DNA of 55,342 bases. Source: a virus. Taxonomy: Duplodnaviria; Caudoviricetes. Below, one piece after another: positions 29,513 through 50,815 of this stretch. Under the pieces are notes generated by a model. That model was not told the DNA's origin, did no database searches, and was given only the letters and a program-made list of their open reading frames with translations. The DNA lies in IMG/VR virus record IMGVR_UViG_3300029286_000049, positions 1 through 55,342 of that record, one strand, 5' to 3'. Within the stretch, counting starts at the first letter, position 1, and every line of letters begins with the position of its first letter. A program made the translations under genes and the position numbers.

Positions 29513-32500
29513 TTATCTACCATACTGTTTTCTAAGTTGAACCAACTCATCCGAATCAGCTTCAGCAACCTGTTTGCTAAGGCTAAACAAGGTTGAAAGC
29601 TTGTTTGACAATTCGCTTTGAGCATTCTTCTGATTATTAGCATGAGTACTTGCCTCGCTGATAATCACGGCTTGTTCCAAACCGTCTGATGCTGCGTTGA
29701 GTCCTTTCTTGCTTGAGAACATTGATTTCTCAATATCCTTTAGCTGTGCGATCCTATATTCGCTAAGTTCAGATACCTTTGAGGACAATTCTGCTGCCTT
29801 GATCATGCCTGTTTCAAGCATGCGTCCGGCGATTCTGAATGCCTCATTTACTCTGTCATTGGACTCCTTCTTACTTGCAGTCACGTTTCCTTTCTGTGAA
29901 TCATTACCAGTCATTTGATTTGTCTTTTCAGACTTGATGGCTGGATTATCTTTCTCTCCGCCGATTCTTGCATCCTTGGATGGAATCTCTGGAGCATTCT
30001 TTTCTGTTGGCTTCTCGCCAATGGACTCTTTTTCTTTTCCGATGAATCCGTCACCAGTTGGAACCTTTTGGTCCTTGGCTGGCTTTGCTTTCGGTACTGC
30101 GCCAATACTTTCTTCCTCATGTCCGATGAAACCAGTTCCAGTCGTCTTGCCGATATCTGGATCATCCTGCGGGAACTTTCTCTGCATCTTTTCTGCAATT
30201 CTCATTACAAGTTCGTCCATTCTGCTCTTTGGAGTAGACATTACGAAAGCAGCCTTCTCTTCCCCGCCAGCGCCCTTTTCTCCGCCTGTTGCGGTGTCAG
30301 TCAATTCAGAATCAAGTTCCTCATTTCCCATCTGTGCTGGACCTGTGAATACATCAGCTATGCTTGCCTTTGGAGGTTTCTCTTGCCCCATAGCAGCATT
30401 GCCTCTCGGAACAGATGGAGACTCTGCTTTGAATGGTTTCTCGTCGCCCAAAGCCTGACTTCCATCACCAATGTTTCCAACGCTGTCTTTTGCAACGTCT
30501 TGAGCTGGTTTCGTCTTTACGCTGCCAGCCTTTTTGCTCAAAGCTGCGATAACACCAGACAGGTCAAGATTGACCTCTCCAGTATTTCCGATATAGCCTT
30601 TTCTCATATACATATTGGACTCCGCTTCGACAGGATTCTCATCTCCTGCCTTCTCCATATTACTTTCCTTATTTGGCATAGAATCTCCTTTATTATTCTG
30701 AAGATTTTTTGCTGGATTGGTTTTTCCGCATGGACATTCTTTTTCAGAACCCTCGGATCCTTCTGTATTTTCCTCTTTTTCTGCAAATGGGTTCTCGTTT
30801 CCGCCTTCCTCATTTACATCATTTTCTACTGTATTTTCTACAACATCATCTACTTTATTCTCAACAGCTTCATTACCCATTTCAGAGTTTTCTGGCTTTA
30901 CTTCAAGCTCAATTTCAACACCTTCTGGAGTCTCACCAAAAGGAATCTCAATCTCGCCAGCTTCACCAGCTTCGCCTTCCTCGCCACCCGGATGAACCTG
31001 AGTGTCAAGAGCTTCGTCAAGCTGCTTTGCGACTTCCATAGGAAGTTCAATACTTACTGTCTCGCCAGCAGGACCATTCTCTACAATGCCTTCCTCTACT
31101 GGAGAAGAACCCATCTCACCGCCGTTATCATCGCCACTCATCTCTGGAGCGGGAGCGCCACCATTTCCACCACCATCTGGATCATCAAACGGATCTGTCT
31201 CTTCCTCTGCCTGAGGCTGTACGCCTTGTGTCTCTTCCATTCCAGAATTGCCAATTGCCTGTCCAATGCCTTCTGCAAGCATATCTTCGATGCCAGCATA
31301 CTTCATCTTCAAGCAATTGCAAATCGTAGAAGCTTCTTTCGTCTTGAAGCCCATTCTGATGTAATCTTCATTACATTCAGTTGTGCCTTCTTCTTCGCTC
31401 CAGATTCCGGCAACCTTCATTGCCATCTGGTTAGAATATACATTTGCCTTCTTCAAAGAATTGCATACGCACTCATAAAGAGGCTTGCCTTCGCATGGTC
31501 CGCTCATTGCAAGAGCTTCTTTGCCATATCTACGGGCAACTCTTTCCATGCAAGATTCCATTGGGAACTTGTCATCGCCAAGGCTGAATGTTGCTTTCTT
31601 GTACATAGCAAGAACAGAATCATTTGTGCTTGCAGTCTTAATTGTTCCAAGCTTACCGGCTTTCTTGAGAGCAAGAATTACTTTGCCCTTGTCTTTGAAT
31701 GACATCTTATCAAACTGTTCTTCGCTGACTTTTACAGTCTTCAAAGCGCTTGCAAATGCTTTCTTTGCTCTAGAGCAACTTGGGCATTCAGTGATAACAG
31801 GAGTGATATCCCATTCCCACTGTGCGAAAGCTTTCTTAGGATCTTTCTTGTCGATAGAGAATGCTACTCTGTACTCGCGTCCAGAATCCAAGCAAACATG
31901 CTTACCCTTGCCAAGATCAAGCGTATTAGAAGAACCAGTAATCGGGCTTACCGAACCGATCTTCTTAACGCCACCAGCAGAAGCCTTCTTCAAAGACTCT
32001 GGGTTAAGCTCTACCATAGATGCAAACTTCGTTACCAAATCATTCTTTACGCTGGCGGCGGCTGGCATTGCAGGAGCGCCACCGGCTGGCATACCACCCT
32101 CAGGTGCTGCACCAGCGGCAGGTGCTTCTGCGCCTGCTTCTGGAAGCTCAAAGCCTTCGCCTTCTGCCCCCTCTTCGCCTGCGCCTTCTTCGCCTTCCTT
32201 ATCTTCGCTGTCGTTTTCAAGAAGGTTTGCCCATCTTGCAACTTCAACCAATACTTTAAATCTGAATTCAGAACCACAGTTATTGCACTTACCAGATCCA
32301 TTAACAATGTCAACGTCTGCTGAAGTACATACTGGGCAAACTGAACCCGGTGGCTTCGGATCAAGATTCTGATCGTCACCGCCTTCAAGACCTTCGCCAA
32401 GATCAGACTGCTCAAAGCTCTCTACTGGAGGAGGAGTTTGTGCGCCAGGAGCGCCACCCGGAGCGGCTGCTGGAGGCTGAGGAAGCGTTGTTCCTCCACC

Positions 32501-35500
32501 TACACCACCACCCATCTCTCCACCAAGCATCTGAGATTCTTTCTTCATTGCAGTTCTAATCTGCTTACGAGAAGTTGCGAAAGCTCTATCTCTTGGCATT
32601 CTAGCTGCTGGTCCTTGACCCATGCCAGCGCCAATTCCGGCAGGCTCTTCGCCACCGAACTCACCACCGAACTCGCCACCGGACTCGCCACCTAGTTCTC
32701 CTCCAAGATCATTCTCTCCATCAAGACCTACGTCTCCACCTGGGATTACTTCACCTGGAAGTGCCTCGCCGCCTGTCTCCGCGCCCAAATCATCTTCTGC
32801 TCCGAAATCATCGGCAAGAGGATTAAGAGTTTCGTCACCTACTGGATTTCCCTCAATAGCGTCAAGATCAGAATTCGATGGTTCACCGAAACCTCCCTTA
32901 TCACCAGAAAGATCATCCATTTCAAAACCTTCATCTCCGCCAAGATCGCCTTCCATGCCAAGTCCAGCAGATGGATCTAATGCAGGTCTGCGTGTTCCTT
33001 TAAGGGACTTATCCTCATCACCAAACATGCCAGGATCGCTATACTGAGCAAATACTTTCTTCTCATTATCATTGAGTTTGCTTACGTCTTTAGCAGTCAA
33101 AACTACAAGACCCTTGCTCTTATCGGTATCTACCTTCGTGATAACGAACTTCAAACCGCTATCAGCAATCTGCTGACTTGCAAACTTATGAGCAGCCTTC
33201 AAGAAAGCAGCCTTATTATCTGCCTTTGGAGCAATACCAATTTCCTTTACAGTCGAATAAATCTGATATACGCCATCTTCTGGTCTGTCAATTTGATTGA
33301 TAGCATTCAAAAGCTGAGATGTCTTATTTACTGGCTGAGAAACCTTTGGAGTAGTGTTGATCTTTTCAGATGCAGACTTCTCTACGGTTGCCATTGCCTT
33401 GCTGTTCGCGGAAACAACCCCGATTGCTTCTACGATGTCATCAGCGCTAATGTCTTGTACCTTGCTTGCCATTGCCACGATCAAAGCGTCAATAGTGTCA
33501 GGGGTCTTAACTCCGCTAGATGCGATCTTTGAGAAGTAAGACATTCTTTCCTTTTCATTCTGAACAGCTTCTGCCTTGTGAGGCATAGAGTTAATAGCAA
33601 CAAGGAAAGATGCCTTTGCCTTGTTCTCTACTGAACCGTTTAATGTTGAAGCGGCTTTATAAATCTCGCTTGGGGTCTTGCCATAGAAAGCGATAACATC
33701 AGAAATTGCTTCCATAGCAGCCTTTGCGGTTTTGATAGGATCATAAGTATAAGCCCAACGAGCAAGAGCGCCGTCCTGATCGCTTAGCTGTTTCTGTGTG
33801 ATAGTCTCTGGAACGACGAAACGATGGTTGGTGCGAAAATCCAGAAGCTGTTTTTCAGTAATTCTGTCGCTCTGGTCATTACTCAACTTAGAACCAATCC
33901 ATCTGCTTACGTCTGTCCATTGCTTTTCAGTAATGACATCAGGTGCATCACCCCAGCGAGTTATATAACCGCTAGTAATGCTATCAAGCTGTTTCTCTGT
34001 AATAACTTCATAAGTCCCTAATCTTTCTTGTGGACTTGTGCTGGTCGTAACGTTTGCCTTGACATTCTCATCGACGTTATCAAGCTGTTTTTCAGTAATT
34101 TTATCTGGGGCTTTATCCCATCTTTCCCCTGTAAATTTGGCGCTATCAAGCTGCCTTTCAGTTGTGACATCCGTTGGATTTCCAGCAACTTTCTCGACCT
34201 TATCATTAGAATTTGCCATTATATTAAGCTCCTTGTTCTCTTTATCTTGTGACTGTAGTGTATATACATATTCACTGACTTTTTGTATCCTATCCATAAT
34301 CTTCTGAGATTTGGCTAAAACTTCCTTTATTTTTTCCAGATTGGTATTTGAATTTTTCGGCGTAGTGACATATCCAAGGTTTCCCATACCCTCTGTTTGA
34401 ACATTTGGATTGCCAGTTGGTTGTTGAACTGGCTGCGGAGCAGCTTGTGGCTGAGAAGCCTGCATTTGTTCTCCAGCGGCACCAGTCGTATTTACATTCA
34501 TACCAGATGAACTTGTGGGTAAACCTATGTTCCAATCTATATTTGTAGGAGATGGGATCTGTAAAATACCCATTTCTACAAGCTCGTCTATTGTTCCCTG
34601 TATAGATGACATTGCCTCAACGATGTCAGTGACATACTCCATAGAAATCTTCTCTTTCTGAGACATCATAGATTTAGCAACTATTTCCATCTTATTCATC
34701 GCGTCATTAAGGAACTCAATTTCTTTCTTGCCCGCGACTTTTTCGAGATCGCACATTCCATTACTGCACTCAATTGCTTTTCCAAGTTTAGTAACAACAT
34801 TTCTCATGCCTGCTACTTTCTTAGACAATTCAGATGCATTCAAAATCTTTTCTACATTGCAATCATGGCAAGCAGGATTTACAACAAAACTGTCTTCAAT
34901 AAACTTAATGTCGAAGTTATGTTCATAAACATGAGCCTCTTTCTGGATAAGCTCATTGGTTTCGCCTTTCTTTTTGTGGCAAACTGGGCAAGCGTCATTT
35001 GGTTTACTTGGGCTATCGTGATACTGGCATTTGTAATTGCCAGATACTTTTCTATTCTTCTTCTCTTTGATATGTGTGCAATACTCATCTGCAACATGCG
35101 CCTTATTATGGCAAATAGAGCATAGAGAATAACTTACAGAGCATCCCATAGAAGAACCAGTAATATAGTTTTCTTCTATTCCTCTAGCAAGTTTAGGGTA
35201 AGCAGTCTTATCTACCATCCCTATAATATAAATACCATCTTTGTCATCATCGTACCAAGAATGGACTACTTTGCCTCTTGCCTTCTCTATATCATCATTC
35301 TGGTGATTGCAGAACATAGGAACGCCAACAAATGTTTCATAAGCTTTCTTAAGTTCTTTAGTGGAGAAGTAATCTGCATTGTCATTGACTTCATTTGCCT
35401 TGATAGCAAAAATCTTGACAAATAAATGTTCTGGATGATCCTTGATAGCAGAGGTAAGATCAAAACCGCCTAAATCTGTTTTGTCCTTATTAACCTTTGC

Positions 35501-35599
35501 TGTCTTAATGAAGGAAGTATTGATTTCTTCCCAATTGACAGGATCATTCAAAGTGTCCAAAGATACGATTTTATAATTTGCTTTTTTATCTATAGCCAT
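29513..35599 (-). CDS. Giant prohead protease/scaffold polyprotein (2028 aa)
   Basis: N-terminal N.N.D.F...EL, F.NH, GSSMGC...CSIC, F.E.SFV..PA protease-type motifs; long acidic/Gly-rich linkers, zinc knuckles, helical C-terminus; position upstream of capsid genes. Confidence 0.78.
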   Translation of the reverse strand: MAIDKKANYKIVSLDTLNDPVNWEEINTSFIKTAKVNKDKTDLGGFDLTSAIKDHPEHLFVKIFAIKANEVNDNADYFSTKELKKAYETFVGVPMFCNHQNDDIEKARGKVVHSWYDDDKDGIYIIGMVDKTAYPKLARGIEENYITGSSMGCSVSYSLCSICHNKAHVADEYCTHIKEKKNRKVSGNYKCQYHDSPSKPNDACPVCHKKKGETNELIQKEAHVYEHNFDIKFIEDSFVVNPACHDCNVEKILNASELSKKVAGMRNVVTKLGKAIECSNGMCDLEKVAGKKEIEFLNDAMNKMEIVAKSMMSQKEKISMEYVTDIVEAMSSIQGTIDELVEMGILQIPSPTNIDWNIGLPTSSSGMNVNTTGAAGEQMQASQPQAAPQPVQQPTGNPNVQTEGMGNLGYVTTPKNSNTNLEKIKEVLAKSQKIMDRIQKVSEYVYTLQSQDKENKELNIMANSNDKVEKVAGNPTDVTTERQLDSAKFTGERWDKAPDKITEKQLDNVDENVKANVTTSTSPQERLGTYEVITEKQLDSITSGYITRWGDAPDVITEKQWTDVSRWIGSKLSNDQSDRITEKQLLDFRTNHRFVVPETITQKQLSDQDGALARWAYTYDPIKTAKAAMEAISDVIAFYGKTPSEIYKAASTLNGSVENKAKASFLVAINSMPHKAEAVQNEKERMSYFSKIASSGVKTPDTIDALIVAMASKVQDISADDIVEAIGVVSANSKAMATVEKSASEKINTTPKVSQPVNKTSQLLNAINQIDRPEDGVYQIYSTVKEIGIAPKADNKAAFLKAAHKFASQQIADSGLKFVITKVDTDKSKGLVVLTAKDVSKLNDNEKKVFAQYSDPGMFGDEDKSLKGTRRPALDPSAGLGMEGDLGGDEGFEMDDLSGDKGGFGEPSNSDLDAIEGNPVGDETLNPLADDFGAEDDLGAETGGEALPGEVIPGGDVGLDGENDLGGELGGESGGEFGGEFGGEEPAGIGAGMGQGPAARMPRDRAFATSRKQIRTAMKKESQMLGGEMGGGVGGGTTLPQPPAAAPGGAPGAQTPPPVESFEQSDLGEGLEGGDDQNLDPKPPGSVCPVCTSADVDIVNGSGKCNNCGSEFRFKVLVEVARWANLLENDSEDKEGEEGAGEEGAEGEGFELPEAGAEAPAAGAAPEGGMPAGGAPAMPAAASVKNDLVTKFASMVELNPESLKKASAGGVKKIGSVSPITGSSNTLDLGKGKHVCLDSGREYRVAFSIDKKDPKKAFAQWEWDITPVITECPSCSRAKKAFASALKTVKVSEEQFDKMSFKDKGKVILALKKAGKLGTIKTASTNDSVLAMYKKATFSLGDDKFPMESCMERVARRYGKEALAMSGPCEGKPLYECVCNSLKKANVYSNQMAMKVAGIWSEEEGTTECNEDYIRMGFKTKEASTICNCLKMKYAGIEDMLAEGIGQAIGNSGMEETQGVQPQAEEETDPFDDPDGGGNGGAPAPEMSGDDNGGEMGSSPVEEGIVENGPAGETVSIELPMEVAKQLDEALDTQVHPGGEEGEAGEAGEIEIPFGETPEGVEIELEVKPENSEMGNEAVENKVDDVVENTVENDVNEEGGNENPFAEKEENTEGSEGSEKECPCGKTNPAKNLQNNKGDSMPNKESNMEKAGDENPVEAESNMYMRKGYIGNTGEVNLDLSGVIAALSKKAGSVKTKPAQDVAKDSVGNIGDGSQALGDEKPFKAESPSVPRGNAAMGQEKPPKASIADVFTGPAQMGNEELDSELTDTATGGEKGAGGEEKAAFVMSTPKSRMDELVMRIAEKMQRKFPQDDPDIGKTTGTGFIGHEEESIGAVPKAKPAKDQKVPTGDGFIGKEKESIGEKPTEKNAPEIPSKDARIGGEKDNPAIKSEKTNQMTGNDSQKGNVTASKKESNDRVNEAFRIAGRMLETGMIKAAELSSKVSELSEYRIAQLKDIEKSMFSSKKGLNAASDGLEQAVIISEASTHANNQKNAQSELSNKLSTLFSLSKQVAEADSDELVQLRKQYGR
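33780..34172 (-). repeat. Six [IT]TEKQL-type peptide repeats
   Basis: VTTERQLD, KITEKQLD, VITEKQLD, VITEKQWT, RITEKQLL, TITQKQLS; boundaries approximate. Confidence 0.8.
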
Positions 35600-35602
35600 A
35601 AG

Positions 35603-36235: not shown

Positions 36236-36278
36236 TAGAATAACCTCATTCAGACTAAAAAATTACCAAACATCTACG

Positions 36279-36310: not shown

Positions 36311-36346
36311 AAGAAATAGAAAAATAGGTATTTTGAGTAGAAAACA

Positions 36347-36838
36347 TTACGTTTTAACGTGTCTTGGAATGTTTACATTAGCAAGATCGTGCAATGTATA
36401 GTTCCTTTGATTCTGTGGATAAGACAAACCCCACATCTCTACGGCGTGACTCAATGCGCTAGCTATAGTGCTGAAGTATTCTCCGCTAGGCGCATATATC
36501 TTCTTCCTTTTCCATTTTGGAGGCAATCTTTTGATACCAGAGAAGAATCTCTTCTTACCCTGTTTGGTTAATGCCGGTCCTACAATAATGAAATAATCTG
36601 CATCTGTAGTATAATCATGACCTTCCCATCTGTAGTAAGCGCCTTGACCTATATCTCTGTCAAACCTTATCTTCAAGTCATCAGACTTCTCGCGGTATGC
36701 TTCTTTCCAGTCTATACCACGGTCTTTAATCCTTTTGCGACTTGCATCTTTAATTAAAGAATCTATGTCTACATAAGCCTTATGCAAACCAGACATTTGC
36801 CTATCTGTACTTATCATAGATTTGTGCAAATTAAACAT
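36347..36838 (-). CDS. Hypothetical basic protein
   Basis: TAATG-coupled to portal. Confidence 0.7.
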   Translation of the reverse strand: MFNLHKSMISTDRQMSGLHKAYVDIDSLIKDASRKRIKDRGIDWKEAYREKSDDLKIRFDRDIGQGAYYRWEGHDYTTDADYFIIVGPALTKQGKKRFFSGIKRLPPKWKRKKIYAPSGEYFSTIASALSHAVEMWGLSYPQNQRNYTLHDLANVNIPRHVKT

Positions 36839-39800
36839 TATTTAGTCCCTATTAGGTAAACACATCCAAGGTTATTAGGAAGAATCTCTTTATCAATTAT
36901 CACATTCTCTTGGTTAATATAATCTAAGATTATATGACCAGCAGCAACTTTAATCATACTGAAATCTGCATCAGCGGCTTTGACTCTTTTTCTCTTTTCT
37001 TTTTCAGCAGCACTCAATTGCTGATATATAACTTTCTGCACTTCTGCTGGTGAATCCTCTATGGCGTTCTCATTAAATCTCATTATTCTCCATCCAATGT
37101 TAGCCAGCTTCACATCTCTAGCTTTGTCTCTAGCTTTTGATTCAGCATCTTCATGCCATTTCTGACCATCTGCCTCTATGCCAACGCCGACAGCAGGATA
37201 AGCAAAATCTATATTGAAAGGAAATTGTTGTCCTGGGACTTGAACCTTGTATTGACCATATAAGTTATACGGGACTTTCATGCCGCTCAACATATTATAC
37301 ATCTGAGACTCAAGCTTAGTCAGAGCCAAAGGCATCTTAACAGACTTAGCCTTTTGTTGCTCTTGCATCTGCTCCATAAACGATTTGCCACCTTTGCCTC
37401 TCTTAGTGACCTTGAAACCTTCTGCTGCCGCAGGCATTCCAGGTGCTCCGCCAGGAGCGCCACCCATGCCTCCTCCCATACCTCCCATACCTCCCATACC
37501 TTCCATGCCTGGAGCGCCACCCATTTCTCCGCCAGGTGCGCCGGGAGCGCCGCCAGGTGCGCCAGGCGCGCCGCCACCGCCCATATCCATAGGAGCGCCA
37601 CCGCCTCCTCCGCCCATGCCTCCCATACCGCCACCTTCTTGTCCACCAAGTTGACCTTGAGGACCAGCCATAATCATCTCTTCTCTTATCTTCTGAAGCT
37701 CATCATCATAGCTAAGACCAAACTCTTTAAGAAGCGTATCATTAGAAACAAGACCTTTATCATTCATTTGCATAAACATCTGCATCTTATTAGAATTGTC
37801 TCTAAGGTTAAGATCATTCCATTTGATAGTTGGCTTGAGCCATACTTCTTCTCCAACCATTTCAGATTCTTCATCGTCCCTAAAACCTTGCATCATAGAA
37901 ACAGGCAGGAAGATATGTTGCTCAATCCATTCACTTAAAATGTTTTGCCATCCCTGTAAACGGCGTATCAAAGCTTCGACACCAACCTGAGCACTTCCCC
38001 ACGCTGGACCTTCACCATTTAAAAGGCTCTGGTTCAACATCATCCCGTCAAGAATCTCTTTTCCAATAGCATCCATTTCGGCAGTTATATTATGTATCTT
38101 TCCAGAATTTCCCTGAATAGCAATCTTTCCATTACGCATAGTCACGAAGAATCCAGTAGAAGTCTCGAAACACCATACTTTGCCTTTATAGTATTCTTTA
38201 GAAACATGATCATCTTTTATTCTTGGGAAACGACCCTTTCCGTTATCTGTCATATTACAATTAATTACATATTGCTTACCTTTTCTATACTGACTTAGCA
38301 CAGGTGATAATCCGCATTTAAACAAGACTTCTAGCATATCATCGGCTAAATTTTTACTATTAGTCCCTGCTTGAATTGCGAAAGATTCATCATATACATA
38401 TTTTGATGCGTCTCCCTTGCAATACGCCTCTGCCAAAATCATAAGTTTTTCAGGAGGCAAATTCTTTATCCAATTGGGAATTTTCTTTTCATTAGAATTA
38501 TGACCAAACCATTCACCTATTTGCCTTGCTACATCCTTCATCAAAATGTTCCATGTTGTGGCTCTACCTTCATAGGCATATTTACTAAACTTCATGCCAA
38601 GCGAAGGCATAATTTCATCTATTTCTTCACAGTATTCTGGGTTGGCGGATGGAGACTGACCTATCGAAACTATATAACGTCGTTTCTCAGGCTTAAATTC
38701 ACAATGTCCCTCTGATAAATAATACCCGGCAAATCTTAGAAAATCATCTATTGGGACTTTATATCCACAAACATCAATTTCTTCAACCACCTGCTCTGCT
38801 GAATCATATTCCGCAACGCATCTTACATATCTATCACATTCATTTATAATAGCGAAATCTTTAGCTTGCATAGTATAAGCAGTTTTAAGATCTCTTTTAT
38901 ACCCAAGCATTTTATGACTAGGGGTTACTAACATATCCATTTTATTGCCGAAAAACTTAACCATTTCCCCATCATAATCATATTCATGAAGCTTTAATGG
39001 TTTTTCATATCTCATTTTGCCTGTTTTAGAATCAAATACCATTATCTCATCATCTGCTGTAACTTCCCAATAATTCTTCCAGCCAGATTTACATAAAGCC
39101 TTGGTATCACTAGAGTTACACGCCCCAAACCATTCGTACTCGAAAGCGTGGTGAGTGATCAATGTAAGATTAGGATCATTCGCTACAGCAGATAGCTGTG
39201 CGGATACATCTGCGATGTCATCAGGAGTAGCAGGACGTTCTTTGTCACCGATCTTAACTACTCTTACTGGAAGCACAAGTCTTTCTGCTATAATCCAGTT
39301 TGCAGTCATTAACTTTGTCTTATAAGCGAGAATAGTAAACAATCTACGAAGCATAGACGTACCATACACGCCATAAGGGGCGGCATTATGTCTTAAATGA
39401 CTTATACAGCGATTTGACAGCGGGATAGGTAATCCACTAACAATCATACCAATAATCTTTGGTGGAAGCCTCTTATAGATTTGTTCTGGTTTCTTTCTCT
39501 GAACAAGCATTCTCAGCTCTTCATCTGGGATAAGTGAGAAAACTGGTTCAGGAGCAAGTGAGTTTTTCTGAGCTTCAATCCAGTCAGGATTCAATATAAC
39601 GATTCTCTTTATTTTTCCGCCAGGATGTCTGCAAGACTCGCCTGTTGGAAGAACGCCGCCACCGCCGCATATTGGGCATTCCATCTCAATAAACGGAAAT
39701 ACGTCGCCAATCATATGATACTCATGACTAATGTATTTAAGAATTGCATTCAACTGTAAGTCCTTCACAAGCTTCTCGAAGAACTTCAAAACTTTCTTAT

Positions 39801-40167
39801 CTTTGCACTCTAGCTTAAACCCGTTAATTGGGAAGTGACCATAGAAATCTATGGCGGCAGCTACTTTAGGTTCATTCTCATAATAGAATCTAGCCCATTG
39901 ATAGCATTCTCTTCTTTTAGAAGCAATCTGCCAGTTTTGCGGAGTATGAAGGGGGCTAAAGAACATGGGCTGTGTCATTGTGACATTAGCACCTGATCCA
40001 GCAAATTGAGAATACTTAGTAATAGGCACTTTGACCGTATCGCTAGTAGTATATTTCATATTCCTAGAATAGCCGCTAGAATCGCCTCTAAAAGAACCAG
40101 ACGCTGCGGTTAATATATTTCTGACTTTCTCAGAGCGTTTATCAAGAACGTTAAACTTAATGGGCAT
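36838..40167 (-). CDS. Portal protein with intein, Gly/Met/Pro linker and C-terminal DUF559-like nuclease domain
   Basis: W.RFYYENEP.VAAAID...FP, Y..IGDVFPF, YG.S.LRR.F..L, IKWNDLNL portal-type motifs; position in head module. Confidence 0.82.
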   Translation of the reverse strand: MPIKFNVLDKRSEKVRNILTAASGSFRGDSSGYSRNMKYTTSDTVKVPITKYSQFAGSGANVTMTQPMFFSPLHTPQNWQIASKRRECYQWARFYYENEPKVAAAIDFYGHFPINGFKLECKDKKVLKFFEKLVKDLQLNAILKYISHEYHMIGDVFPFIEMECPICGGGGVLPTGESCRHPGGKIKRIVILNPDWIEAQKNSLAPEPVFSLIPDEELRMLVQRKKPEQIYKRLPPKIIGMIVSGLPIPLSNRCISHLRHNAAPYGVYGTSMLRRLFTILAYKTKLMTANWIIAERLVLPVRVVKIGDKERPATPDDIADVSAQLSAVANDPNLTLITHHAFEYEWFGACNSSDTKALCKSGWKNYWEVTADDEIMVFDSKTGKMRYEKPLKLHEYDYDGEMVKFFGNKMDMLVTPSHKMLGYKRDLKTAYTMQAKDFAIINECDRYVRCVAEYDSAEQVVEEIDVCGYKVPIDDFLRFAGYYLSEGHCEFKPEKRRYIVSIGQSPSANPEYCEEIDEIMPSLGMKFSKYAYEGRATTWNILMKDVARQIGEWFGHNSNEKKIPNWIKNLPPEKLMILAEAYCKGDASKYVYDESFAIQAGTNSKNLADDMLEVLFKCGLSPVLSQYRKGKQYVINCNMTDNGKGRFPRIKDDHVSKEYYKGKVWCFETSTGFFVTMRNGKIAIQGNSGKIHNITAEMDAIGKEILDGMMLNQSLLNGEGPAWGSAQVGVEALIRRLQGWQNILSEWIEQHIFLPVSMMQGFRDDEESEMVGEEVWLKPTIKWNDLNLRDNSNKMQMFMQMNDKGLVSNDTLLKEFGLSYDDELQKIREEMIMAGPQGQLGGQEGGGMGGMGGGGGGAPMDMGGGGAPGAPGGAPGAPGGEMGGAPGMEGMGGMGGMGGGMGGAPGGAPGMPAAAEGFKVTKRGKGGKSFMEQMQEQQKAKSVKMPLALTKLESQMYNMLSGMKVPYNLYGQYKVQVPGQQFPFNIDFAYPAVGVGIEADGQKWHEDAESKARDKARDVKLANIGWRIMRFNENAIEDSPAEVQKVIYQQLSAAEKEKRKRVKAADADFSMIKVAAGHIILDYINQENVIIDKEILPNNLGCVYLIGTK
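37420..37660 (-). repeat. GAPG/GGMG low-complexity repeat in portal C-terminus
   Basis: GC-rich tandem GGAPGAPG and GGM repeats; boundaries approximate. Confidence 0.8.
38107..39120 (-). mobile_element. Intein (338 aa) with LAGLIDADG domain in portal
   Basis: CNSSDT....SGW, VTPSH, FAGYYLSEG, YCKGDA, VWCFET...IAIQGN|S. Confidence 0.9.
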
Positions 40168-40178: not shown

Positions 40179-40682
40179 TTAACCTCCACACAAATCTTCC
40201 CAAGTGCTTTCCACTTGTTCCATGTGTTTATTATCGGGATTTTTTGGATGAAAAGGATCTGAGAACTGTTTTATTTCTTCACTCTCATATATCCCATGAA
40301 CTGGTTTATGATGTTTCTTCTTGCTTTTCTTGCTTGTTATTTCCTTTTTATCGATAGGATCAACATCTAAAGTATCATCTTTAGATGCAGCTCTCCTAGC
40401 TGTAGGTAGAGGTTGACCCGGAACGATCATCTTCTTCCAGCTTTCTTTTTGAGAGCCGGGAGAATCTGGCTTATGATCTTCAAGACCTGTCACTTTTGGC
40501 GTGACTGTTTGCTTACATACAGGGCAGAAATTATCTTCGCCTAATGTAGATTGTCTTCCGACTATTAGGCATTTCGGGCAAAGCTTTTCGGGCTTAACTC
40601 CCCATACATCTGCATCCAGTCCCCTTTTCGGAGGTTCTGCACTGAGTGGTTTTAATGGTGGGAGATCCGCTAGCTTGATGTT
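40179..40682 (-). CDS. -1 frame extension of 40670..42043 containing a CPKC...CPVC zinc ribbon
   Basis: Frame of ORF 40179..40493 is open a further 63 codons up to the A10 run with no ATG/GTG/TTG start. Confidence 0.7.
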   Translation of the reverse strand, partial: NIKLADLPPLKPLSAEPPKRGLDADVWGVKPEKLCPKCLIVGRQSTLGEDNFCPVCKQTVTPKVTGLEDHKPDSPGSQKESWKKMIVPGQPLPTARRAASKDDTLDVDPIDKKEITSKKSKKKHHKPVHGIYESEEIKQFSDPFHPKNPDNKHMEQVESTWEDLCGG

Positions 40683-42043
40683 TTTTTTTTGAGGTTGAAA
40701 GAAGCCTGTCTATCCATATCCATTTGCTCATGGAGTCTGTCATCGTCAGCAGCTCCTTTCAAGTCACTCATAGAAGGCAAAGACTCCTTATATTGATCTA
40801 TACTTTGCTGTACAAACTTAAGGACTTCTTTATATATCTCTCTGGCTAGTGAGTCATCATCCAAATGCTGCAAATGTGGTTGTTCGGCGGCAGACGAAGA
40901 AGCTCTCTCACTGGCAAAACTATCTTCTTCTAAACCCATTACATCAAAAGCGATTTCAGAAGGAGTCATAGAAGTTTGCTCATTCAGGAATTCTTTAGCA
41001 TTGCTTTCTTCCTGACAATGATCGACATAATCTTTTATCTGTTTTTGAAAAAGTTCCTCTTTGCTTTGAGGAGATGGTGTCATATTTGCCTGTGCTGTCT
41101 TTACAGATGCTTTTTTCCAATTGAAAGGTTGTCCAGAAGATTCTGGTTCATAGCCTTTTTCTTCCGCCTGTTTTTCTCTCATTGCCTCAAGTCTGGCTTC
41201 GGTGCTTCTATATTCTGGAAGATATGGTTTTCTTCTTTCGCCGGGTAGAAGCTGATAGTTATTCCCTTCTGGGGTCCATCTATCTACTTCAAATCTCTTA
41301 TTAATATATCCACCAACCCAATTACCATCCTTGTCGCGATATGGACGAGAATACTTGTCCATAATACTTCCGCGCCAGATCGATTCCCAGTCAATGTTCC
41401 AAACATTGTCAACGACCAAACCGAAACCCTTATTTCTCTCTACAACGCTCCAGTCTGAAACTGGCTGTCTAGTAAACGGGTCTATTCTGGTCTGCCCTGG
41501 ACCGTACATGATAATGTTTTGAGATGTTTGTGCTTGGGCTTGCTTACTCAAGTTAAAAGACTTATTGACCGGCAAATTAGAAGATGCCATCTTCTTAATT
41601 TGGCTATCAACATCTTTCACAAAAGCCTCTATCTCTTTAGGATCAATTTCTTTATATTCAGTTGCCATCATACCCTCTTGACTGTCTGGTGATACCATCC
41701 CAACAGGGAGGATACCAGATTTAACTATTTGACCAGCGATCTCCTCTCTTATCCCAGGATCATCTGCTGTGTAATACTGTTCCAAAGCTTCTCTTAATGC
41801 TTCTAAATCGGCATGAGCGACTTTATCTTCTATTTGCTTCTGTACTGCTGTTCTATCCCCACTAGACAAAAAAGCATCAAGGTCAGAACCTTTTTCAAAA
41901 ACCAAATCTTGTTCTTGTGGGCTAGAAGTTTGAGCCGGGTCTTCCAAAGGTTGCTCTGTCTCTGGCATCGCCATAGGATCTTGTGCAGGAGACATCATAG
42001 GGTCTTGCAGCACTTGAGCATTCTTTGTAAAGATTCTTTTCAT
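40670..42043 (-). CDS. Putative head/core protein with FN[LW]KK-A motifs
   Basis: TAATG-coupled; acidic linkers around an aromatic-rich core (ERNKGFG...MDKY.RPY...GGYI.KRFEV). Confidence 0.75.
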   Translation of the reverse strand: MKRIFTKNAQVLQDPMMSPAQDPMAMPETEQPLEDPAQTSSPQEQDLVFEKGSDLDAFLSSGDRTAVQKQIEDKVAHADLEALREALEQYYTADDPGIREEIAGQIVKSGILPVGMVSPDSQEGMMATEYKEIDPKEIEAFVKDVDSQIKKMASSNLPVNKSFNLSKQAQAQTSQNIIMYGPGQTRIDPFTRQPVSDWSVVERNKGFGLVVDNVWNIDWESIWRGSIMDKYSRPYRDKDGNWVGGYINKRFEVDRWTPEGNNYQLLPGERRKPYLPEYRSTEARLEAMREKQAEEKGYEPESSGQPFNWKKASVKTAQANMTPSPQSKEELFQKQIKDYVDHCQEESNAKEFLNEQTSMTPSEIAFDVMGLEEDSFASERASSSAAEQPHLQHLDDDSLAREIYKEVLKFVQQSIDQYKESLPSMSDLKGAADDDRLHEQMDMDRQASFNLKKKTSS

Positions 42044-42770: not shown

Positions 42771-43454
42771 TTATATGAGCTTGTCGAACAAACTGTTCTT
42801 GCTCTCCTTAATCATTTCCTGTATAGTACATGCAGCCTTATTTCTTTTCGGCTTTTTGTTCTTGAGACCACCATCATCTTTGCCAGGTCCATATACTTGA
42901 GTAAGTACATCGTTGATCATGCCAGCCTGAGATTCGTTCTCTTGCTCTTGCATGGTTCTAGAATTGAAATTCAAAGTGACCTTCAAATCGCTTCTCTCGG
43001 CATCCTCGAAGTTCAATCCAAATTGCTTCTGTATAGAGTTTACTATGTTGGTAAAGTCTTTATTGGACAATCTCTTTTTAGACCCGTAGTATCTATCTGG
43101 AATTACAAGAGTGACCTCTCTTGAACCATCTGGGAAGATCTTCTCTTTAACGAATTCTTCCTCATATTGTTCCAAACGGCGAGGAGGATAGCCAAAATGT
43201 GTCAAAGTCTTGAAAATGAATTCTGTGACATCATCCTCATTACCCGATCCATCACTGGACTGATCATTACGCTCTTCGTTGGCATCAACGGCGCGTTCTA
43301 GTTCTTTATCTCTTGGCTCATTTGGTTCTGGCTCAGCTTGTGGCTGAGGTCCGACAGTTTCTGTGCCTTGACCGAAATCAACGCCAGTCTGTTGGACCTC
43401 GTCCACCGCTTGTGCAACCATAATGCGCCTGCTACCTGATGGTATAAGCCTCAT
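42771..43454 (-). CDS. Hypothetical protein
   Basis: GGAG SD; head operon. Confidence 0.7.
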   Translation of the reverse strand: MRLIPSGSRRIMVAQAVDEVQQTGVDFGQGTETVGPQPQAEPEPNEPRDKELERAVDANEERNDQSSDGSGNEDDVTEFIFKTLTHFGYPPRRLEQYEEEFVKEKIFPDGSREVTLVIPDRYYGSKKRLSNKDFTNIVNSIQKQFGLNFEDAERSDLKVTLNFNSRTMQEQENESQAGMINDVLTQVYGPGKDDGGLKNKKPKRNKAACTIQEMIKESKNSLFDKLI

Positions 43455-43483
43455 AGGTCTACTCCAATATAAAAGTTGAATAA

Positions 43484-44083
43484 TTAGTCAGCGATCATTG
43501 CATCGACATATTCAGCCGGATACAAATTCTGCCAATACTTCTTCAACCAAGACTTTGTCTTGTCATTAAGCTTGGCAACACGAATAAATCTGCCATTCGT
43601 AGAAGCAACAGCTTCCTTCTCTTCTTTATCGTCTTCCTTTTCTTCTTTTGCGCCAAAAGGTTTTGCCTTCTTGTCGCCAAAGTTATCGATGCCAGCAGCC
43701 TTCTTGCTCTTACCGATCTCGGTCTTCTTGACCTTGTCATCGGTAAGATCCTTGTTGCCAGCATCTACAGACTCGCCGGTCTGATGAAGAGGCTCAACGT
43801 CGAGCTGACCAGAGCTTTCGCCCTTTTCATCTTCGTTCTTGCCAGCCTTCTTGACAGATTCCTCTGCCTTTGCCATGCAAGCCTTTTCATCGACTTCTGG
43901 ATCGTTGTTGTTCTCAGCCTTCCCTTCCCACTCTGGCTGTCCGCTGCCTTCTGCTTCATCTTTCTCTTTCTTAGACGCTGTCTTCGTAAGAGACTCTTTC
44001 TTGGCTGCATACTTATTGACCAAATCGTTGAAAGAGACTTTCTTGCCGCTTGGGATCGTGTTCGTGCATAGTTTAATTTCCAT
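43484..44083 (-). CDS. Highly charged putative internal head protein with KxA motifs
   Basis: AAGGAG SD; TKTAS, KKAG, KKAAG, RVAK; repeated GSGQPE/SSGQLD. Confidence 0.72.
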   Translation of the reverse strand: MEIKLCTNTIPSGKKVSFNDLVNKYAAKKESLTKTASKKEKDEAEGSGQPEWEGKAENNNDPEVDEKACMAKAEESVKKAGKNEDEKGESSGQLDVEPLHQTGESVDAGNKDLTDDKVKKTEIGKSKKAAGIDNFGDKKAKPFGAKEEKEDDKEEKEAVASTNGRFIRVAKLNDKTKSWLKKYWQNLYPAEYVDAMIAD

Positions 44084-44132
44084 TTTCTTTAACTCCTTAG
44101 ATAATTAAGTGTATCTAATTCCTATTTTATTA

Positions 44133-44162
44133 CCTTTCCAAAATTGATCTCTCAATTCCTTT
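44133..44162 (-). promoter_or_regulatory. Putative late promoter (AAAGGA-N17-GGAAAG)
   Basis: Weaker match to recurring motif. Confidence 0.35.
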
Positions 44163-44170
44163 GTTTATTT

Positions 44171-45934
44171 TTACCCATTAGTCATATTCAGTTTGCATAC
44201 ACTATCAAGAAACTTATTTACGTCTATTATACTCTTGCTTATATCTGGCATGTCAGATGGGGCTTTTACAGCTTTTCTCCTAACCAAATCCCATAATCTT
44301 GCGAGATCCTCATGCATCTTTTTGCAATCGATATCAGAACCGACAGATGGAGTAGATACAGTATTTTGGCCTTGTACTTGCTGAGTCACATCTTGAGGTC
44401 CAGTAGCAAATCTACCAGTCCCATTAGCCTTTTCTTCTAGTATTCCTATCAAGGCGTTATTCCCTTTTCTGGAGCCAGCATTATATATCATCTGTATGAT
44501 AGCTTTTTCTAAATCTGGAGACAAATCTGATGCTACATCGGCTTTCTTAAAATTATAGGTTATAGTCTTAGCGGCTATATTTTGTGCAGATTCTTCCTCT
44601 GTCAAAGCTCCCTCTTCCGCGATTTCTGGGTTGCCATGTATATCAAACATTCGATTCGTTTTCTGTGTGACATCATTAAGGTTTTGAGTGTCTTGTCCCT
44701 TTCTCTTAAGAACATCTTTTATTAAGTTCACATCTATATCATATTTCTTCAAAAACTCTACTAAGCTATCTGGATTTCCAAGATTGTTCTTTTGAAAGAT
44801 TTCTTTTGCTTGGTTTCCGACATTACCTGTCGAGGATGGTGTTGCTTGTGCAGCAGGCGCAGATACTGGTGCAGCCTTTTGAGCCGATGGAGCAGCATTT
44901 GCTGGCGGCGCTCCAAATGAACCATTAGTAGATGGTGCTGCTTGCTGAGCCGTAGGAGCAGCCTGTTGAGCAGCAGGAGCCGCTTGAAAGTTCTGTATAG
45001 CCATCATAGCAGGACGTACAGATTGAGAAAAGCTGTTATATACCTGATTAATCCCGCTACCTTTTACATTAACATTAGTTTGAATAAACTTATTGATGTT
45101 ATCTATAAAAGTTTTGCTTTGTGATGGAAAATTTTCGGCAATCTCTTGTATATCTTTGCTTTTTTTACTTAAATCATTTTGAAGTTTTCTTAGTGCATCG
45201 AATTGCCCTTGTTTGTTATTTTTTTTTTGTTCCTTTCTGATGATCTTAGCAGTCTCATGAAGTCTTTCATCGACCTGCTTCATAAAATAGATAGCCTTGG
45301 TCTTAGGATCACGGCTAAAAGCATCAAACATTCCTGCTACTTTCAGATTGCTTACAATCTCTTGAGCAGCAGTAGCTACTTTCTGACCTAATTCAATACG
45401 ACCATTCTCATTCAATTTCTCAGCAATGGTCAGAAGCTTATCCGCTTCTTTAATTATGCTGTTTTCATATCTCAAAACACCTTGCTGAATAGCAAGCTTT
45501 ATGGCTCTGTCGGGAGTAAGACCACCGTTAATCAGCTCGGCAGACTTCTTATGGAAATAGTCTTTCTCCATAGCGATTACTTTCTTGGAAAACTCTGGCT
45601 TGCGACTTGCGAACTTCTTGAGACTATCTGATGCATCCTCTGCATACTTATCCCAATCAGATCTATCTTTATTCAAAGATTCAACATATTCGCTTTGACA
45701 TTCAGACCAGACTGCTTGAGCGCCAAGTTCAGGCTTGCTTGCCCTTTTCTGCCTATAGCAATTAGACCAACATCTTTCATTGCGAATCCAATAACCCTGA
45801 ACACCAACATACTGAGCTTCAGTGATCTTGAGAACATTGCGAGTAATCCTGTCGATTACTGCGGCGGTTCTCTTAAGACCTTTAGAATCAAGCTCATCTG
45901 CTATGTCTGTAAGTTTTTCAATACTATTTGCCAT
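44171..45934 (-). CDS. Putative internal head protein, helical with Ala/Pro/Gln linker
   Basis: Repeated L..IA..L...G helices; CW.NCYRQKR; KVAG, YNFKKA motifs. Confidence 0.72.
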   Translation of the reverse strand: MANSIEKLTDIADELDSKGLKRTAAVIDRITRNVLKITEAQYVGVQGYWIRNERCWSNCYRQKRASKPELGAQAVWSECQSEYVESLNKDRSDWDKYAEDASDSLKKFASRKPEFSKKVIAMEKDYFHKKSAELINGGLTPDRAIKLAIQQGVLRYENSIIKEADKLLTIAEKLNENGRIELGQKVATAAQEIVSNLKVAGMFDAFSRDPKTKAIYFMKQVDERLHETAKIIRKEQKKNNKQGQFDALRKLQNDLSKKSKDIQEIAENFPSQSKTFIDNINKFIQTNVNVKGSGINQVYNSFSQSVRPAMMAIQNFQAAPAAQQAAPTAQQAAPSTNGSFGAPPANAAPSAQKAAPVSAPAAQATPSSTGNVGNQAKEIFQKNNLGNPDSLVEFLKKYDIDVNLIKDVLKRKGQDTQNLNDVTQKTNRMFDIHGNPEIAEEGALTEEESAQNIAAKTITYNFKKADVASDLSPDLEKAIIQMIYNAGSRKGNNALIGILEEKANGTGRFATGPQDVTQQVQGQNTVSTPSVGSDIDCKKMHEDLARLWDLVRRKAVKAPSDMPDISKSIIDVNKFLDSVCKLNMTNG

Positions 45935-45935
45935 T

Positions 45936-46517: not shown

Positions 46518-46519
46518 AA

Positions 46520-47373: not shown

Positions 47374-47382
47374 GATTTGTCC

Positions 47383-47808: not shown

Positions 47809-47820
47809 TGTTCTTTCCTC

Positions 47821-48615: not shown

Positions 48616-48738
48616 TTCTTTAATGCCAACCGTAATTAGGAATTCTACCTACTAAATAATACCATATCCTACCAGATATAGCTTTTCCTAATTTAAAAGC
48701 AAAATCCTTCTCAATTCCTATTACGCCAAAGCGATTAA

Positions 48739-49347
48739 TTATTCTGGGTCAATATTTTTCAATATAGGATGACTATCTCTTCTTTCTTTCTCTATAGTTT
48801 GATCTGCGAAATCGATATCACCATCAGAAGAAACTACTTCTTCATCAGGTGCATTTTCGTATACAAAAATAACTTCATCTTTCTTGGCAGATTTCTTGAC
48901 ATCATCAGCCATTTTCTTTGCCTTTTTGCCCATAGAGCTTTTCGGTTTTCTGCCAGATTTCTTTTCCGCCTTATTTTCTGTATCATTCACTTCTATGATA
49001 CCATTAGCCTTTACGACAACAGAAGGAGTTTTTGCGTTAAGCTGACCCAAAGCGGATTCGGTACTATCTTTGCCGATCAAAGGCTTTTGGTTATGAGCAT
49101 CCCATCCTTGCATATTAGTAGTAGGAGCAGGATCTTCACTCATCTTTACTTCTGCGATAGGCTCAACCTTTTTCTTATCTTCTGGCTTAACAAGATACTT
49201 CAAGCCGATAAACTTCTGGATATGAGCCTCTTTAAGTTGCTCATCTGTCAATGTTAATCTTGCTCCTCCAGTGACCTTTCTTTTTACATCCCCAATCTTA
49301 ATGTTCAACGTACCTTTAAAGCTTTTGTTTACGATCAATTCTGGCAT
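48739..49347 (-). CDS. Hypothetical protein
   Basis: AAGGAG SD. Confidence 0.7.
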   Translation of the reverse strand: MPELIVNKSFKGTLNIKIGDVKRKVTGGARLTLTDEQLKEAHIQKFIGLKYLVKPEDKKKVEPIAEVKMSEDPAPTTNMQGWDAHNQKPLIGKDSTESALGQLNAKTPSVVVKANGIIEVNDTENKAEKKSGRKPKSSMGKKAKKMADDVKKSAKKDEVIFVYENAPDEEVVSSDGDIDFADQTIEKERRDSHPILKNIDPE

Positions 49348-49365
49348 AAAATCTCCTTGTTCTTC

Positions 49366-49866
49366 TTAACGTAATCTATCTCTAACTGTTTTTACTACAT
49401 CAGGATATGCTTGCATATTCTGAATGCGTGGTTGACCTCTACCGTCTTCTGAACCACCATTTAGTTTATCGGCAAGAAAAGGAGAATCCGTATCTGTAAA
49501 CATTATATCAGTCTCGTAAGGATCAACTTTTACGCCATCCTCTACAAGATTATGAGGCGAATAAGGCATATCACTCTTTAGCTGGTCACTATATTCGTCT
49601 TTACCAGACGAACTACCATCTCTGTTGTATCCATCACCAGTAAAGTTATCTCTGGTATTAGTACCAAGACCACCACCCATACCGCCAGGAGTTATTTCCT
49701 CATTACCTGGTCGGGTTAAATCCCATCCCTGCCCATCGCCAGGTCTTCTCTCTTTACGATAAGGGTCTTTGGCACTGGGAGAATCTGGATTCTCATTTAA
49801 TGGGAGATTCCCTCTTTGCGCTAATTTGATTTTCTTGTAAAAGTTCAATTTATATTGTCCCGCCAT
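49366..49866 (-). CDS. Disordered Gly/Asp-rich protein with LNFYKKIKLAQ leader-like motif
   Basis: Overlaps upstream stop; leader resembles MNWYKxIKIA. Confidence 0.65.
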   Translation of the reverse strand: MAGQYKLNFYKKIKLAQRGNLPLNENPDSPSAKDPYRKERRPGDGQGWDLTRPGNEEITPGGMGGGLGTNTRDNFTGDGYNRDGSSSGKDEYSDQLKSDMPYSPHNLVEDGVKVDPYETDIMFTDTDSPFLADKLNGGSEDGRGQPRIQNMQAYPDVVKTVRDRLR

Positions 49867-50815
49867 TTTCTTGCGATATGTCTGTATGTTCTACTATTCT
49901 AATACCGCTTGTAGGATCTTGGATCTTGCCAGAAACAGCATATTGCTCTCTCAGTGTTTTGGCATCTGACATACTCAAAGGCTCTTGATTAACAAGTTTC
50001 CACTCACCGCCAGGTTCTCTATATTCTATATCCCACATTTTCTCTTGCTGACTGTTAACGTCTTGCATTTCGTTGTGTTCTGCTACAGCATCGTCTGCCT
50101 GCATATCAAATTGATCTGATGCTGCATCATTAACAGGAGCATTCTGATCCATAGGAAGCAACTGAGCGAGAATTCTTCTCTTACCGCTATTGATGTCTTC
50201 CGCCATCTTCTTTTCCGTCGCAGTCAAATCTCTAGATGCGACAGCAGCACTTCTATAGATATGATAAAGCATAGCATCAGCGTCCTTAATCTGGCTTACC
50301 ATCTCGGCAGAAGCATTCTTGACGCAAGGGTTCTCTTTTCTAAGCTCTTCTCCATCCTTAAAATTAGATGTAAGCTGGCTTCTTGTATCCACCTTAACCT
50401 TGTTAGGCTTATCGCCAAGCATTTGACTGCCAGGCTTTGGCATCTTGAAATCATCTTTGACTTTCTCTTGAGCCTTTTTCAAAGCCTTAACGAAATCTTC
50501 TTCATGCTTTTTATGATAAGACATAGGATGCTTGCCTTTGTCATCTCTTGGATTAGAAGGAAGTGTCCCTTTGGAAAAAGCACCCTTCGATTCATTAATC
50601 TGTTTTTCAGTAATCTGGGTATCTGCTTCAATCCATTTCCCTTCGTCTTTCATTTGCTTTTCAGTAGTGACATCTAAATCCTGATTCTTTCTGTCTTTAG
50701 AAAGCAACCAGTCGATGTTCCCCGTATCATCATTGGCAGAGGTATCAAACTTCTCTCTGTCCTCTTGAAGTCTCTGATCCATATTACTTACGCTTGCTTT
50801 TTTATAGTTAAACAT
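49850..50815 (-). CDS. Putative internal head protein (MFNYKKAS leader; TEKQ repeats)
   Basis: GAGGAG SD; VTTEKQM and QITEKQI match the protease repeats. Confidence 0.72.
   Translation of the reverse strand: MFNYKKASVSNMDQRLQEDREKFDTSANDDTGNIDWLLSKDRKNQDLDVTTEKQMKDEGKWIEADTQITEKQINESKGAFSKGTLPSNPRDDKGKHPMSYHKKHEEDFVKALKKAQEKVKDDFKMPKPGSQMLGDKPNKVKVDTRSQLTSNFKDGEELRKENPCVKNASAEMVSQIKDADAMLYHIYRSAAVASRDLTATEKKMAEDINSGKRRILAQLLPMDQNAPVNDAASDQFDMQADDAVAEHNEMQDVNSQQEKMWDIEYREPGGEWKLVNQEPLSMSDAKTLREQYAVSGKIQDPTSGIRIVEHTDISQENGGTI

Follow-up and report, generated by a model that had tools for sequence, protein, structure and literature searches.

To our knowledge, only a few phages (T4, phiKZ/SPN3US and HK97-type examples) have a prohead protease whose cleavage code has been measured. 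Three systems serve as reference points. The herpesvirus UL26 product, a protease–scaffold fusion, cleaves behind Ala (YLQA-T and VQA-S in pseudorabies virus, PrV) and frees the protease at a release site and a capsid-binding tail at a maturation site (PMC4498786). In phage T4, I/L-x-E is the cleavage motif of gp21, and the internal proteins are loaded by way of N-terminal capsid-targeting sequences (PMC12991175). In SPN3US and phiKZ, several copies of the motif lie within propeptides, and many internal or ejection proteins are processed (PMC10052503). The locus described here is a 55,342-base stretch of viral DNA (IMG/VR record IMGVR_UViG_3300029286_000049; hereafter the window), which comprises the head-assembly region of an uncultured phage related to Bacillus phage G. 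Its central gene, a giant open reading frame (ORF) of 2,028 amino acids (aa), is predicted to begin with a prohead protease, and its head proteins are rich in a short motif, Lys-x-Ala (K-x-A) followed by Ser, Gly or Gln, which is probably the recognition site of that protease. Positions are those of the window, and features lie on the minus strand unless stated otherwise.

K-x-A is confirmed as a real, directional and head-specific short linear motif. It was noticed by eye in a sequence-only reading of the window, and all of the motif strings quoted there are present in the translated ORFs. The expected enrichment of [KR].A[SQG] in head-module over other ORFs was borne out. Compared with whole-protein shuffles (n=2,000), the 18 head ORFs (29513-50815; 6,892 aa) contain 44 copies against 13.0 expected (z 8.9), whereas the other 39 ORFs (10,902 aa) are flat, with 9 against 11.5. 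For K.A, the corresponding figures are 95 against 51.1 (z 6.8) and 44 against 43.0, and neither head-set count was reached in any of the 2,000 shuffles. Without the giant ORF, the remaining 17 head ORFs still hold 57 K.A against 34.1 (z 4.2) and 24 [KR].A[SQG] against 8.7 (z 5.3); the giant ORF alone holds 38 against 17 and 20 against 4.3. Methyltransferases and homing endonucleases, in which the motif had been thought scarce, carry it at expectation and not below. Since the motif had been picked by eye, a blind scan over all pairs was added (1,600 residue pairs, gaps 0-3, shuffles confined to local windows of 30 aa). K.A, although defined after looking, is recovered as the top-ranking pair of the head set (z 6.9); in the other set it falls outside the 15 top pairs listed, which are led by collagen-repeat pairs.

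The head proteins are K- and A-rich and partly of low complexity, and in the giant ORF alone the pair KA is also raised (30 against 17.1), as might be expected if K-x-A were a by-product of Lys/Ala-rich helical or low-complexity composition with no specific function. This explanation is largely refuted by the controls and is scarcely credible. The local shuffles leave the z value at the level given above, and A.K, K..A, K.S and KA are all flat in the 17 head ORFs other than the giant one. A site logo (2,224 sites; 65 distinct giant-ORF orthologues) is biased after the Ala to S (3.1-fold) and Q (2.3-fold), with L at -2 (2.6-fold), L/I/V at -1 and V/T/L between K and A. Past residue 255 of the giant ORF, the K of K.A is conserved at 0.45 versus 0.25 for other K (p 5e-4) and the A at 0.48 versus 0.24 for other A (p 8e-5), whereas the reversed control A.K shows no gain (0.20 and 0.28).

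Conservation was followed along the giant ORF (29513-35599; PHROG match), a presumed protease–scaffold polyprotein, using a full-length alignment of 45 orthologous sequences and, for the N-terminal part, an alignment of 33 orthologues (alignment A1). In the latter, K-x-A is conserved at residues 5-7, 32-34, 261-264 and 287-290. The site K32-T-A-K (35495-35506), identified from conservation and the structural model, lies in a disordered N-terminal stretch ahead of the protease core, with a predicted local distance difference test score (pLDDT) below 50; [KR].A is found within 3 columns of it in 100% of 44 orthologues, relatives mostly have K-x-A-S, and A34 is near-invariant. Just after the core, at the place that would correspond to a release site, K261-V-A-G and K287-V-A-G (34730-34819) are kept in 89% and 82% of orthologues, and [KR].A occurs within 70 aa after the core in 43 of 43. 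Further on, the alignment places internal sites (31406-34192) at residues 470, 691, 1204, 1321 and 1395, which recur in 89-100% of orthologues with flanks only 25-36% identical; with 1421 and 1433 included, each internal site is kept in 75-100% of 44 orthologues at a flank identity of 0.25-0.45. Near the C-terminus, K1991-N-A-Q (29618-29629) lies 35 residues before the end and may be the analogue of a maturation site. Of 45 orthologues, 20 carry [KR].A[SQGT] at a distance of 25-48 residues from their C-terminus, versus 17.7% of background windows. Altogether, 23 of the 47 [KR].A sites of the window's giant ORF recur in at least half of the orthologues, compared with a random-position background of 0.13.

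A second motif, [IV]-T-E-K-Q-[LIMW], is also found in the giant ORF. Eight copies are observed against 0.04 expected, six of them in residues 479-605 (33782-34165) and two in the ORF at 49850-50815 (at about 50582-50680). Giant-ORF orthologues carry 0-6 copies (median 2), and the motif is kept in four syntenic relatives of ORF 49850-50815. A docking role is possible for this motif too.

As judged from its predicted structure and homology, the giant ORF begins with a prohead serine protease of the herpesvirus-assemblin/HK97/T4 gp21 fold, with the core at residues ~41-258 (34826-35479). The first ~285 residues match phrog_18299, 'head maturation protease' (E 1.4e-11), and the protease is 36% identical over 176 aa to gp19 of phage G. 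An AlphaFold2 model of residues 1-340, built on alignment A1, is confident for a core at 45-255 and of low confidence at residues 1-40 and 277-288. With VIA-align, the core model matches the varicella-zoster virus (VZV) protease (Z 9.2, 116 aa, root-mean-square deviation 2.8), T4 gp21 (Z 9.0, 129 aa, 3.0) and the PrV protease (Z 8.8). In a Foldseek search, the top 40 matches are almost all proteases of the assemblin/HK97/T4 gp21 type, at E 6e-3 or weaker. Across the 33 sequences H99 is invariant and G148, S150, M151 and G152 are near-invariant; H99 and S150 are candidates for the catalytic His and Ser. A profile search of the protease N-terminus against PDB sequences gave a chance match only (E 0.11), and Peptidase_S78 matches 2 of the 33 relatives. 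Since the Pfam support is weak, the protease assignment rests on the PHROG match, the fold, the homology to gp19 and the gene position. The minus-strand order is portal, small head proteins, giant ORF, decoration protein and major capsid protein (MCP), an order that related loci keep, so that the protease sits between portal and MCP as is usual for a prohead protease. In 8 of the 33 orthologues (L010, L047, L050, L021, L075, L004, L015 and L024) the protease gene carries an intein (Hint/LAGLIDADG) at or just after the conserved G-[TS]-S-M-G, that is, at the presumed catalytic Ser; the copy in the window is uninterrupted.

Taken together, the leaders described below and the conserved sites flanking the protease domain form the expected signature of a maturation-protease code, an interpretation that is partly supported. 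On sequence grounds, K-x-A-(S/G/Q) is probably what the fused prohead protease recognises, cleavage itself being the step that we infer, and the cut would fall after Ala. The protease would be fused to a long, partly disordered polyprotein, presumably a scaffold or internal head protein, and would recognise a hydrophobic residue, any residue, K, then V, T, I or another residue, and A, followed by S, G or Q. Cuts at such sites would release the protease both from its N-terminal peptide and from the scaffold portion, break up the polyprotein, and trim N-terminal leaders off small head proteins encoded next to the portal. A longer form of the site, [F/Y/M]-N-[W/L/Y/F]-x-K-x-A-[Q/S/G], appears as the MNWYK..A leader on otherwise unrelated enzymes, and this leader would act like a T4 capsid-targeting sequence, by which a protein is brought into the prohead and the leader is then removed. 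A complex prediction for the core (41-258) with a 40-residue substrate stretch (455-494) returned a score of 0.02 and a mark of 0.32, which gives no verdict either way.

The clearest candidate for such trimming is a small conserved head protein encoded beside the portal (36347-36838). In the window, its 33-residue leader (36740-36838) starts with MFNLHK and ends in K-D-A-S, abutting the conserved core. Its orthologues have 46 distinct leaders of 2-46 aa before a strongly conserved core; 30 of the 46 end in [KR].[AS][GSA] no more than one residue away from the core, while [KR].[AS] is present in 44 and [FY]N[LYWF] in 24. The Asn-aromatic part is missing from the shortest leaders, which are of the MIKIAA type. 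A 457-aa head-module protein (40670-42043), with a leader ending in K-N-A-Q, has FNLSKQAQ and FNWKKAS-VKTAQ bracketing its conserved core and FNLKKK at its C-terminus. The bracketing is kept in four of four syntenic relatives, with FN[YLF]KKAQ or FN.[ST]K.AQ on one side and YNW.K.AS on the other, and the next genes in these relatives start MFNLKKA, MYNFKKQAQ or MNFYK.QKLA. At the far end of the module, a 321-aa protein (49850-50815) starts MFNYKKAS, and its orthologues start MFNLKKAR, MYNFKKQAQ and MYNLKKQAQ, with a fourth starting MTSKFNLNKKKEAQ. The adjacent 166-aa protein (49366-49866) contains NFYKKIKLAQ; from the starts of its relatives (MNFYKLQKLAY), translation probably begins at the TTG at 49848, with MNFYKK as the resulting N-terminus. 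The annotated upstream ATG of this ORF overlaps the preceding gene. Two further head-module proteins (43484-45934) have conserved sites, TKTAS and VKKAG in the first and YNFKKAD, KFAS and KVAG in the second.

Similar leaders are found outside the head module, where six ORFs of the window start MNWY: two kinase-like paralogues, one GNAT and three proteins of unknown function. The kinase-like paralogues are in tandem (192-1498, plus strand), and each has an MNWYK.IKIA start, with the second probably starting at 842; their match to the protein kinase family of T7 gp0.7 type is weak (phrog_15752, E 2e-6). Two proteins of unknown function (2356-3689) start MNWYKIAQ and MNWYHIQKEAS. The stretch 20919-22668 encodes a 349-aa protein (MNWYKTSQA), a 75-aa protein (MKIIRTAQ) and a GNAT acetyltransferase (MNWYKKIAA). 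The Pfam and PHROG domains of the MNWY-led proteins begin past residue 40. Together, the window and related loci contain 35 distinct MNW[YF] proteins sharing such an N-terminal leader, and [KR].A lies at residues 4-13 in 26 of the 35, as against 22 of 494 background windows, several of the others having K-x-S. These leaders thus end in the protease motif in the sense of a putative motif. A cause at the DNA level, such as a shared promoter or repeat, was ruled out: because the upstream DNA is unrelated and synonymous codons differ, the conservation of MNWYK is at the protein level. A scan of IMG/VR for exact MNWYKKAQ gave 13 matches, at least 6 of them on contigs also found through the MCP, and the tag looks clade-restricted within IMG/VR. 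In the literature, 'MNWYK' turned up only in unrelated papers.

The sequence-only reading had likened internal FN[WLY]KK-A strings to the MNWYK..A leader. It had also treated phi-N-phi-x-K as a separate docking element, and that separation did not survive. Ten of the 37 phi-N-phi tripeptides in the window are followed by [KR].A within 11 residues, whereas shuffles gave a mean of 1.6 and a maximum of 7 in 1,000. Because FN[WLY]xK is statistically coupled to K-x-A, the two are one composite motif, of which K-x-A is the minimal part. The string [FYM]N[WLYF].K itself occurs 6 times against 0.43 expected in the head ORFs and 7 times against 0.94 elsewhere, the latter being the MNWY leaders. Given this coupling, and given that the shortest leaders lack phi-N-phi, docking is only a possible role for phi-N-phi-x-K.

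Could the motif be a docking peptide and nothing more? K-x-A, especially as phi-N-phi-x-K-x-A, would then be an uncut cargo-loading or scaffold-binding peptide, read encapsulin-like by the inner capsid surface, the portal or the scaffold. Such a role would suit a terminal tag on unrelated enzymes, the C-terminal FNLKKK with no Ala after it, and the many sites inside folded elements. It would also suit the MCP (27994-28881; phrog_2522, E 6.9e-66), since no delta domain was detected in it. However, the best-conserved copies flank the protease domain itself, here and in phage G; the motif of the small head protein marks the exact border between variable leader and conserved core; and more than 20 copies in one polyprotein suit degradation better. 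Docking instead of cleavage is therefore unlikely, and the two are not mutually exclusive. The MCP and the decoration protein (28944-29483; PHROG/Pfam scans), together at 27994-29483, contain neither [KR].A[SQG] nor a detected delta domain. The MCP has a conserved I-I-A-Q-A near residue 18. An apparent avoidance of the motif in the MCP (74 orthologues, [KR].A[SQG] 1 against 38.8 expected) was not leaned on, because the orthologues are 68-81% identical to the MCP of the window and only ~0.5 sites are expected in each. The terminase has no K.A against 4.0 expected from composition, a weak signal from a single protein that is suggestive only of avoidance.

The same bias is found in relatives. Phage G is the closest cultured relative (MCP 51.8% identical), and the proteins detectably common by BLAST to the window and a 40-kb stretch of phage G are the portal, gp19 and the MCP only. 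Across gp4-gp27 of phage G, K.A occurs 58 times against 31.6 (z 5.1) and [KR].A[SQG] 22 times against 7.5, with A.K flat; across gp28-gp64, K.A occurs 22 times against 18.9. In gp19 of phage G, the core is preceded by K-I-A-G and K-T-A-A and followed by E-K-V-A-S and L-K-I-A-S. In and around the phage G head module (3292-44131 of that genome), another leader is common, in the forms MKRLIKKAS, MKRLISKTAA, MKKRLLKKISA, MSKKISRLKKTAL and similar; the phage G leader suggests a lineage-specific version of the tag. In Tunturi_5, a phage of Acidobacteriota whose MCP is 32% identical to that of the window, K.A occurs 16 times against 5.6 in the scaffold-like gp332, right after the protease, and 19 times against 8.8 in the 'DNA ejection protein' gp328, and the eight ORFs with a tail-protein annotation stay close to expectation. 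At least 80 related loci in IMG/VR encode MCPs 68-81% identical to that of the window, some of them on contigs of 460-548 kb, and in related loci orthologues of the giant ORF (1.7-2.45 thousand aa) lie upstream of the MCP.

This distribution bears on whether some other enzyme reads the motif, be it a different protease, of host or phage, or a Lys-modifying enzyme. The specificity has been assigned from sequence and not by assay, and the window does encode a Peptidase_C1 (1495-2343) and a weak PHROG 'protease' match (9914-10666). Against this, the bias tracks the prohead-protease lineage across host phyla (a Bacillus/Lysinibacillus phage, an Acidobacteriota phage and the IMG/VR clade) and is confined to genes between terminase and MCP, which makes another reader of the motif highly improbable.

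Several points weigh against cleavage by the fused protease, and the first qualifies a count in its favour. All 84 BLAST-matched pieces of the giant ORF from related loci are biased (K.A 2,549 against 1,107; K.A[SGQ] 1,030 against 214), but the expectations are composition-based and the sequences are phylogenetically related, not independent. About half of the sites in the giant ORF (24 of 47) recur in fewer than 50% of orthologues and so are not positionally conserved. A confident folded domain at residues 1170-1460 (31220-32092; pLDDT 88.6), which has invariant cysteines and gave no meaningful Foldseek match against the PDB, contains 12 K.A sites, and these lie in helices and strands as often as chance would place them. 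Seven of the 12 have their P1 Ala in a loop or at the end of an element, which is not above the 62% background. The idea that sites often sit at the boundary of folded and disordered segments therefore is not general; it fits the N-terminal sites at 5, 32 and 287, which are in low-pLDDT stretches, and fails for this domain, where the sites may be structural or be cut only once the domain is unfolded. Some conserved N-terminal sites depart from the motif: a 227-aa protein (42771-43454) has a conserved 15-residue N-terminus ending in M-V-A-Q, with no Lys at P3, and the portal has a conserved P-I-T-K-Y-S-Q near residue 50, without Ala, where relatives have K-x-A-Q. The K-x-A rule is therefore loose. 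Pfam found no family, and hence no protease family, in the whole 2,028-aa ORF of the window, and Peptidase_S78_2 weakly matches 8 of the 33 relatives (best E 5e-4). Proteomic or biochemical data for any member of the clade were not found. A 2025 multi-omics paper on phage G names gp19 as the head protease, and no peptide-level proteomic data were found in it. No description of a K-x-A code was found in the literature searched on phage G, prohead proteases and cleavage motifs. The abstract of Gonzalez et al. 2020 (J Mol Biol 432:4139), on the phage G capsid and mass spectrometry, reportedly mentions a candidate protease 'processing gp27', so that study may hold relevant data.

The remaining features of the window concern its gene content. 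Nearly all genes are on the minus strand, the plus strand carrying only the two tandem paralogues at 192-1498. The large terminase with an intein (50884-53880; PHROG and Pfam, Intein_splicing + LAGLIDADG_3) and the portal with an intein/endonuclease insert (36838-40167; PHROG and Pfam) were both identified, and the portal ORF has a DUF559/REase-like domain at its C-terminus in addition to the insert. The G+C content is 0.45-0.475 at 28000-34000 (the MCP gene and the 3' two-thirds of the giant ORF) versus ~0.37 elsewhere. An RNA-ligase-like gene (18207-20866) is split around Hint/intein pieces, a further case among the several essential genes with intein or homing-endonuclease inserts. An N6_N4 DNA methylase profile is also split, with positions 1-132 in 16488-18194 and positions 150-220 in 15033-16052. 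A Cys-rich 157-aa ORF lies between the two methylase halves (15033-18194), which look like one gene split by insertion.

If the K-x-A code is true, the mature virion proteins and injected cargo of megaphages could be read straight from their genomes, and the clearing of a 2,000-residue scaffold from a very large capsid would be explained. If the cut falls after Ala, the kinship of phage and herpesvirus proteases would extend from fold to specificity. More tentatively, and with appreciable doubt, phage-G-like megaphages might share a two-part label, phi-N-phi-x-K-x-A-(Q/S/G), whose Asn-aromatic half loads proteins and whose K-x-A half is cut by an assemblin-like protease, which would make it a second, independently evolved targeting and cleavage system beside that of T4. 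Such a label would span Bacillota to Acidobacteriota hosts as well as a large uncultured IMG/VR clade; host-takeover enzymes (kinase-like proteins, acetyltransferases) would be among the loaded cargo, and the protease would begin by digesting the 2,000-residue scaffold of its own polyprotein, at upwards of 20 sites. The leader could also serve as a tool for loading foreign proteins into large capsids. The prediction is directly testable, since phage G and Tunturi_5 are cultured.

Among known systems, the nearest architecture by analogy is the herpesvirus UL26 protease–scaffold precursor and the nearest logic is that of T4. The sequence-only reading had taken T4 gp21 as the analogue, and the herpesvirus fusion, cutting after Ala, is closer. 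Like UL26/UL26.5, the giant ORF appears to combine in one frame an N-terminal serine protease of the same fold with a long C-terminal part; it has conserved sites just after the protease domain and a site near the C-terminus in the 20 of 45 orthologues noted above, and its presumed cuts fall between Ala and a following Ser, Thr or Gly. Unlike the herpesviruses, which have hydrophobic P3/P4 and two or three sites, it has Lys two before the Ala and dozens of sites, and it is a 2,028-aa ORF of a bacterial virus whose motif also occurs on separate head proteins and as N-terminal leaders. The scaffold role of the C-terminal 1,700 aa is presumed.

The likeness to T4 is of another kind. As with gp21, whose fold is related, one short motif runs throughout the head proteins, and as with the T4 capsid-targeting sequence, N-terminal leaders of ~7-11 residues are found on unrelated proteins and end in the putative protease motif; the loading and removal of these leaders are predictions here. 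Unlike in T4, the motif is K-x-A in place of I/L-x-E, the protease forms one ORF with a giant polyprotein, and the MCP has no detectable cleaved delta domain. The phiKZ gp175 and SPN3US gp245 proteases, which cut after Glu with the consensus S/A/G-x-E, resemble the present system in a jumbo-phage head with multiple motif copies, but they belong to an unrelated phage lineage with another capsid protein family. The proposed K-x-A specificity would thus differ from the herpesvirus, T4 and SPN3US/phiKZ codes. Encapsulin cargo-loading peptides are mostly C-terminal, uncut and of other sequence. The tag described here is likewise short, terminal and borne by unrelated enzymes, which it could direct into an HK97-fold shell, but it is N-terminal and ends in a putative protease site. 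Phage G remains the closest comparison, with orthologous protease gp19, portal and MCP, the same K-x-A bias and the same site positions around the core. It differs in that gp19 is a stand-alone 300-aa protease, not fused to a polyprotein, and in that its N-terminal leaders are MKRLIKKAS-like and not MNWYK.

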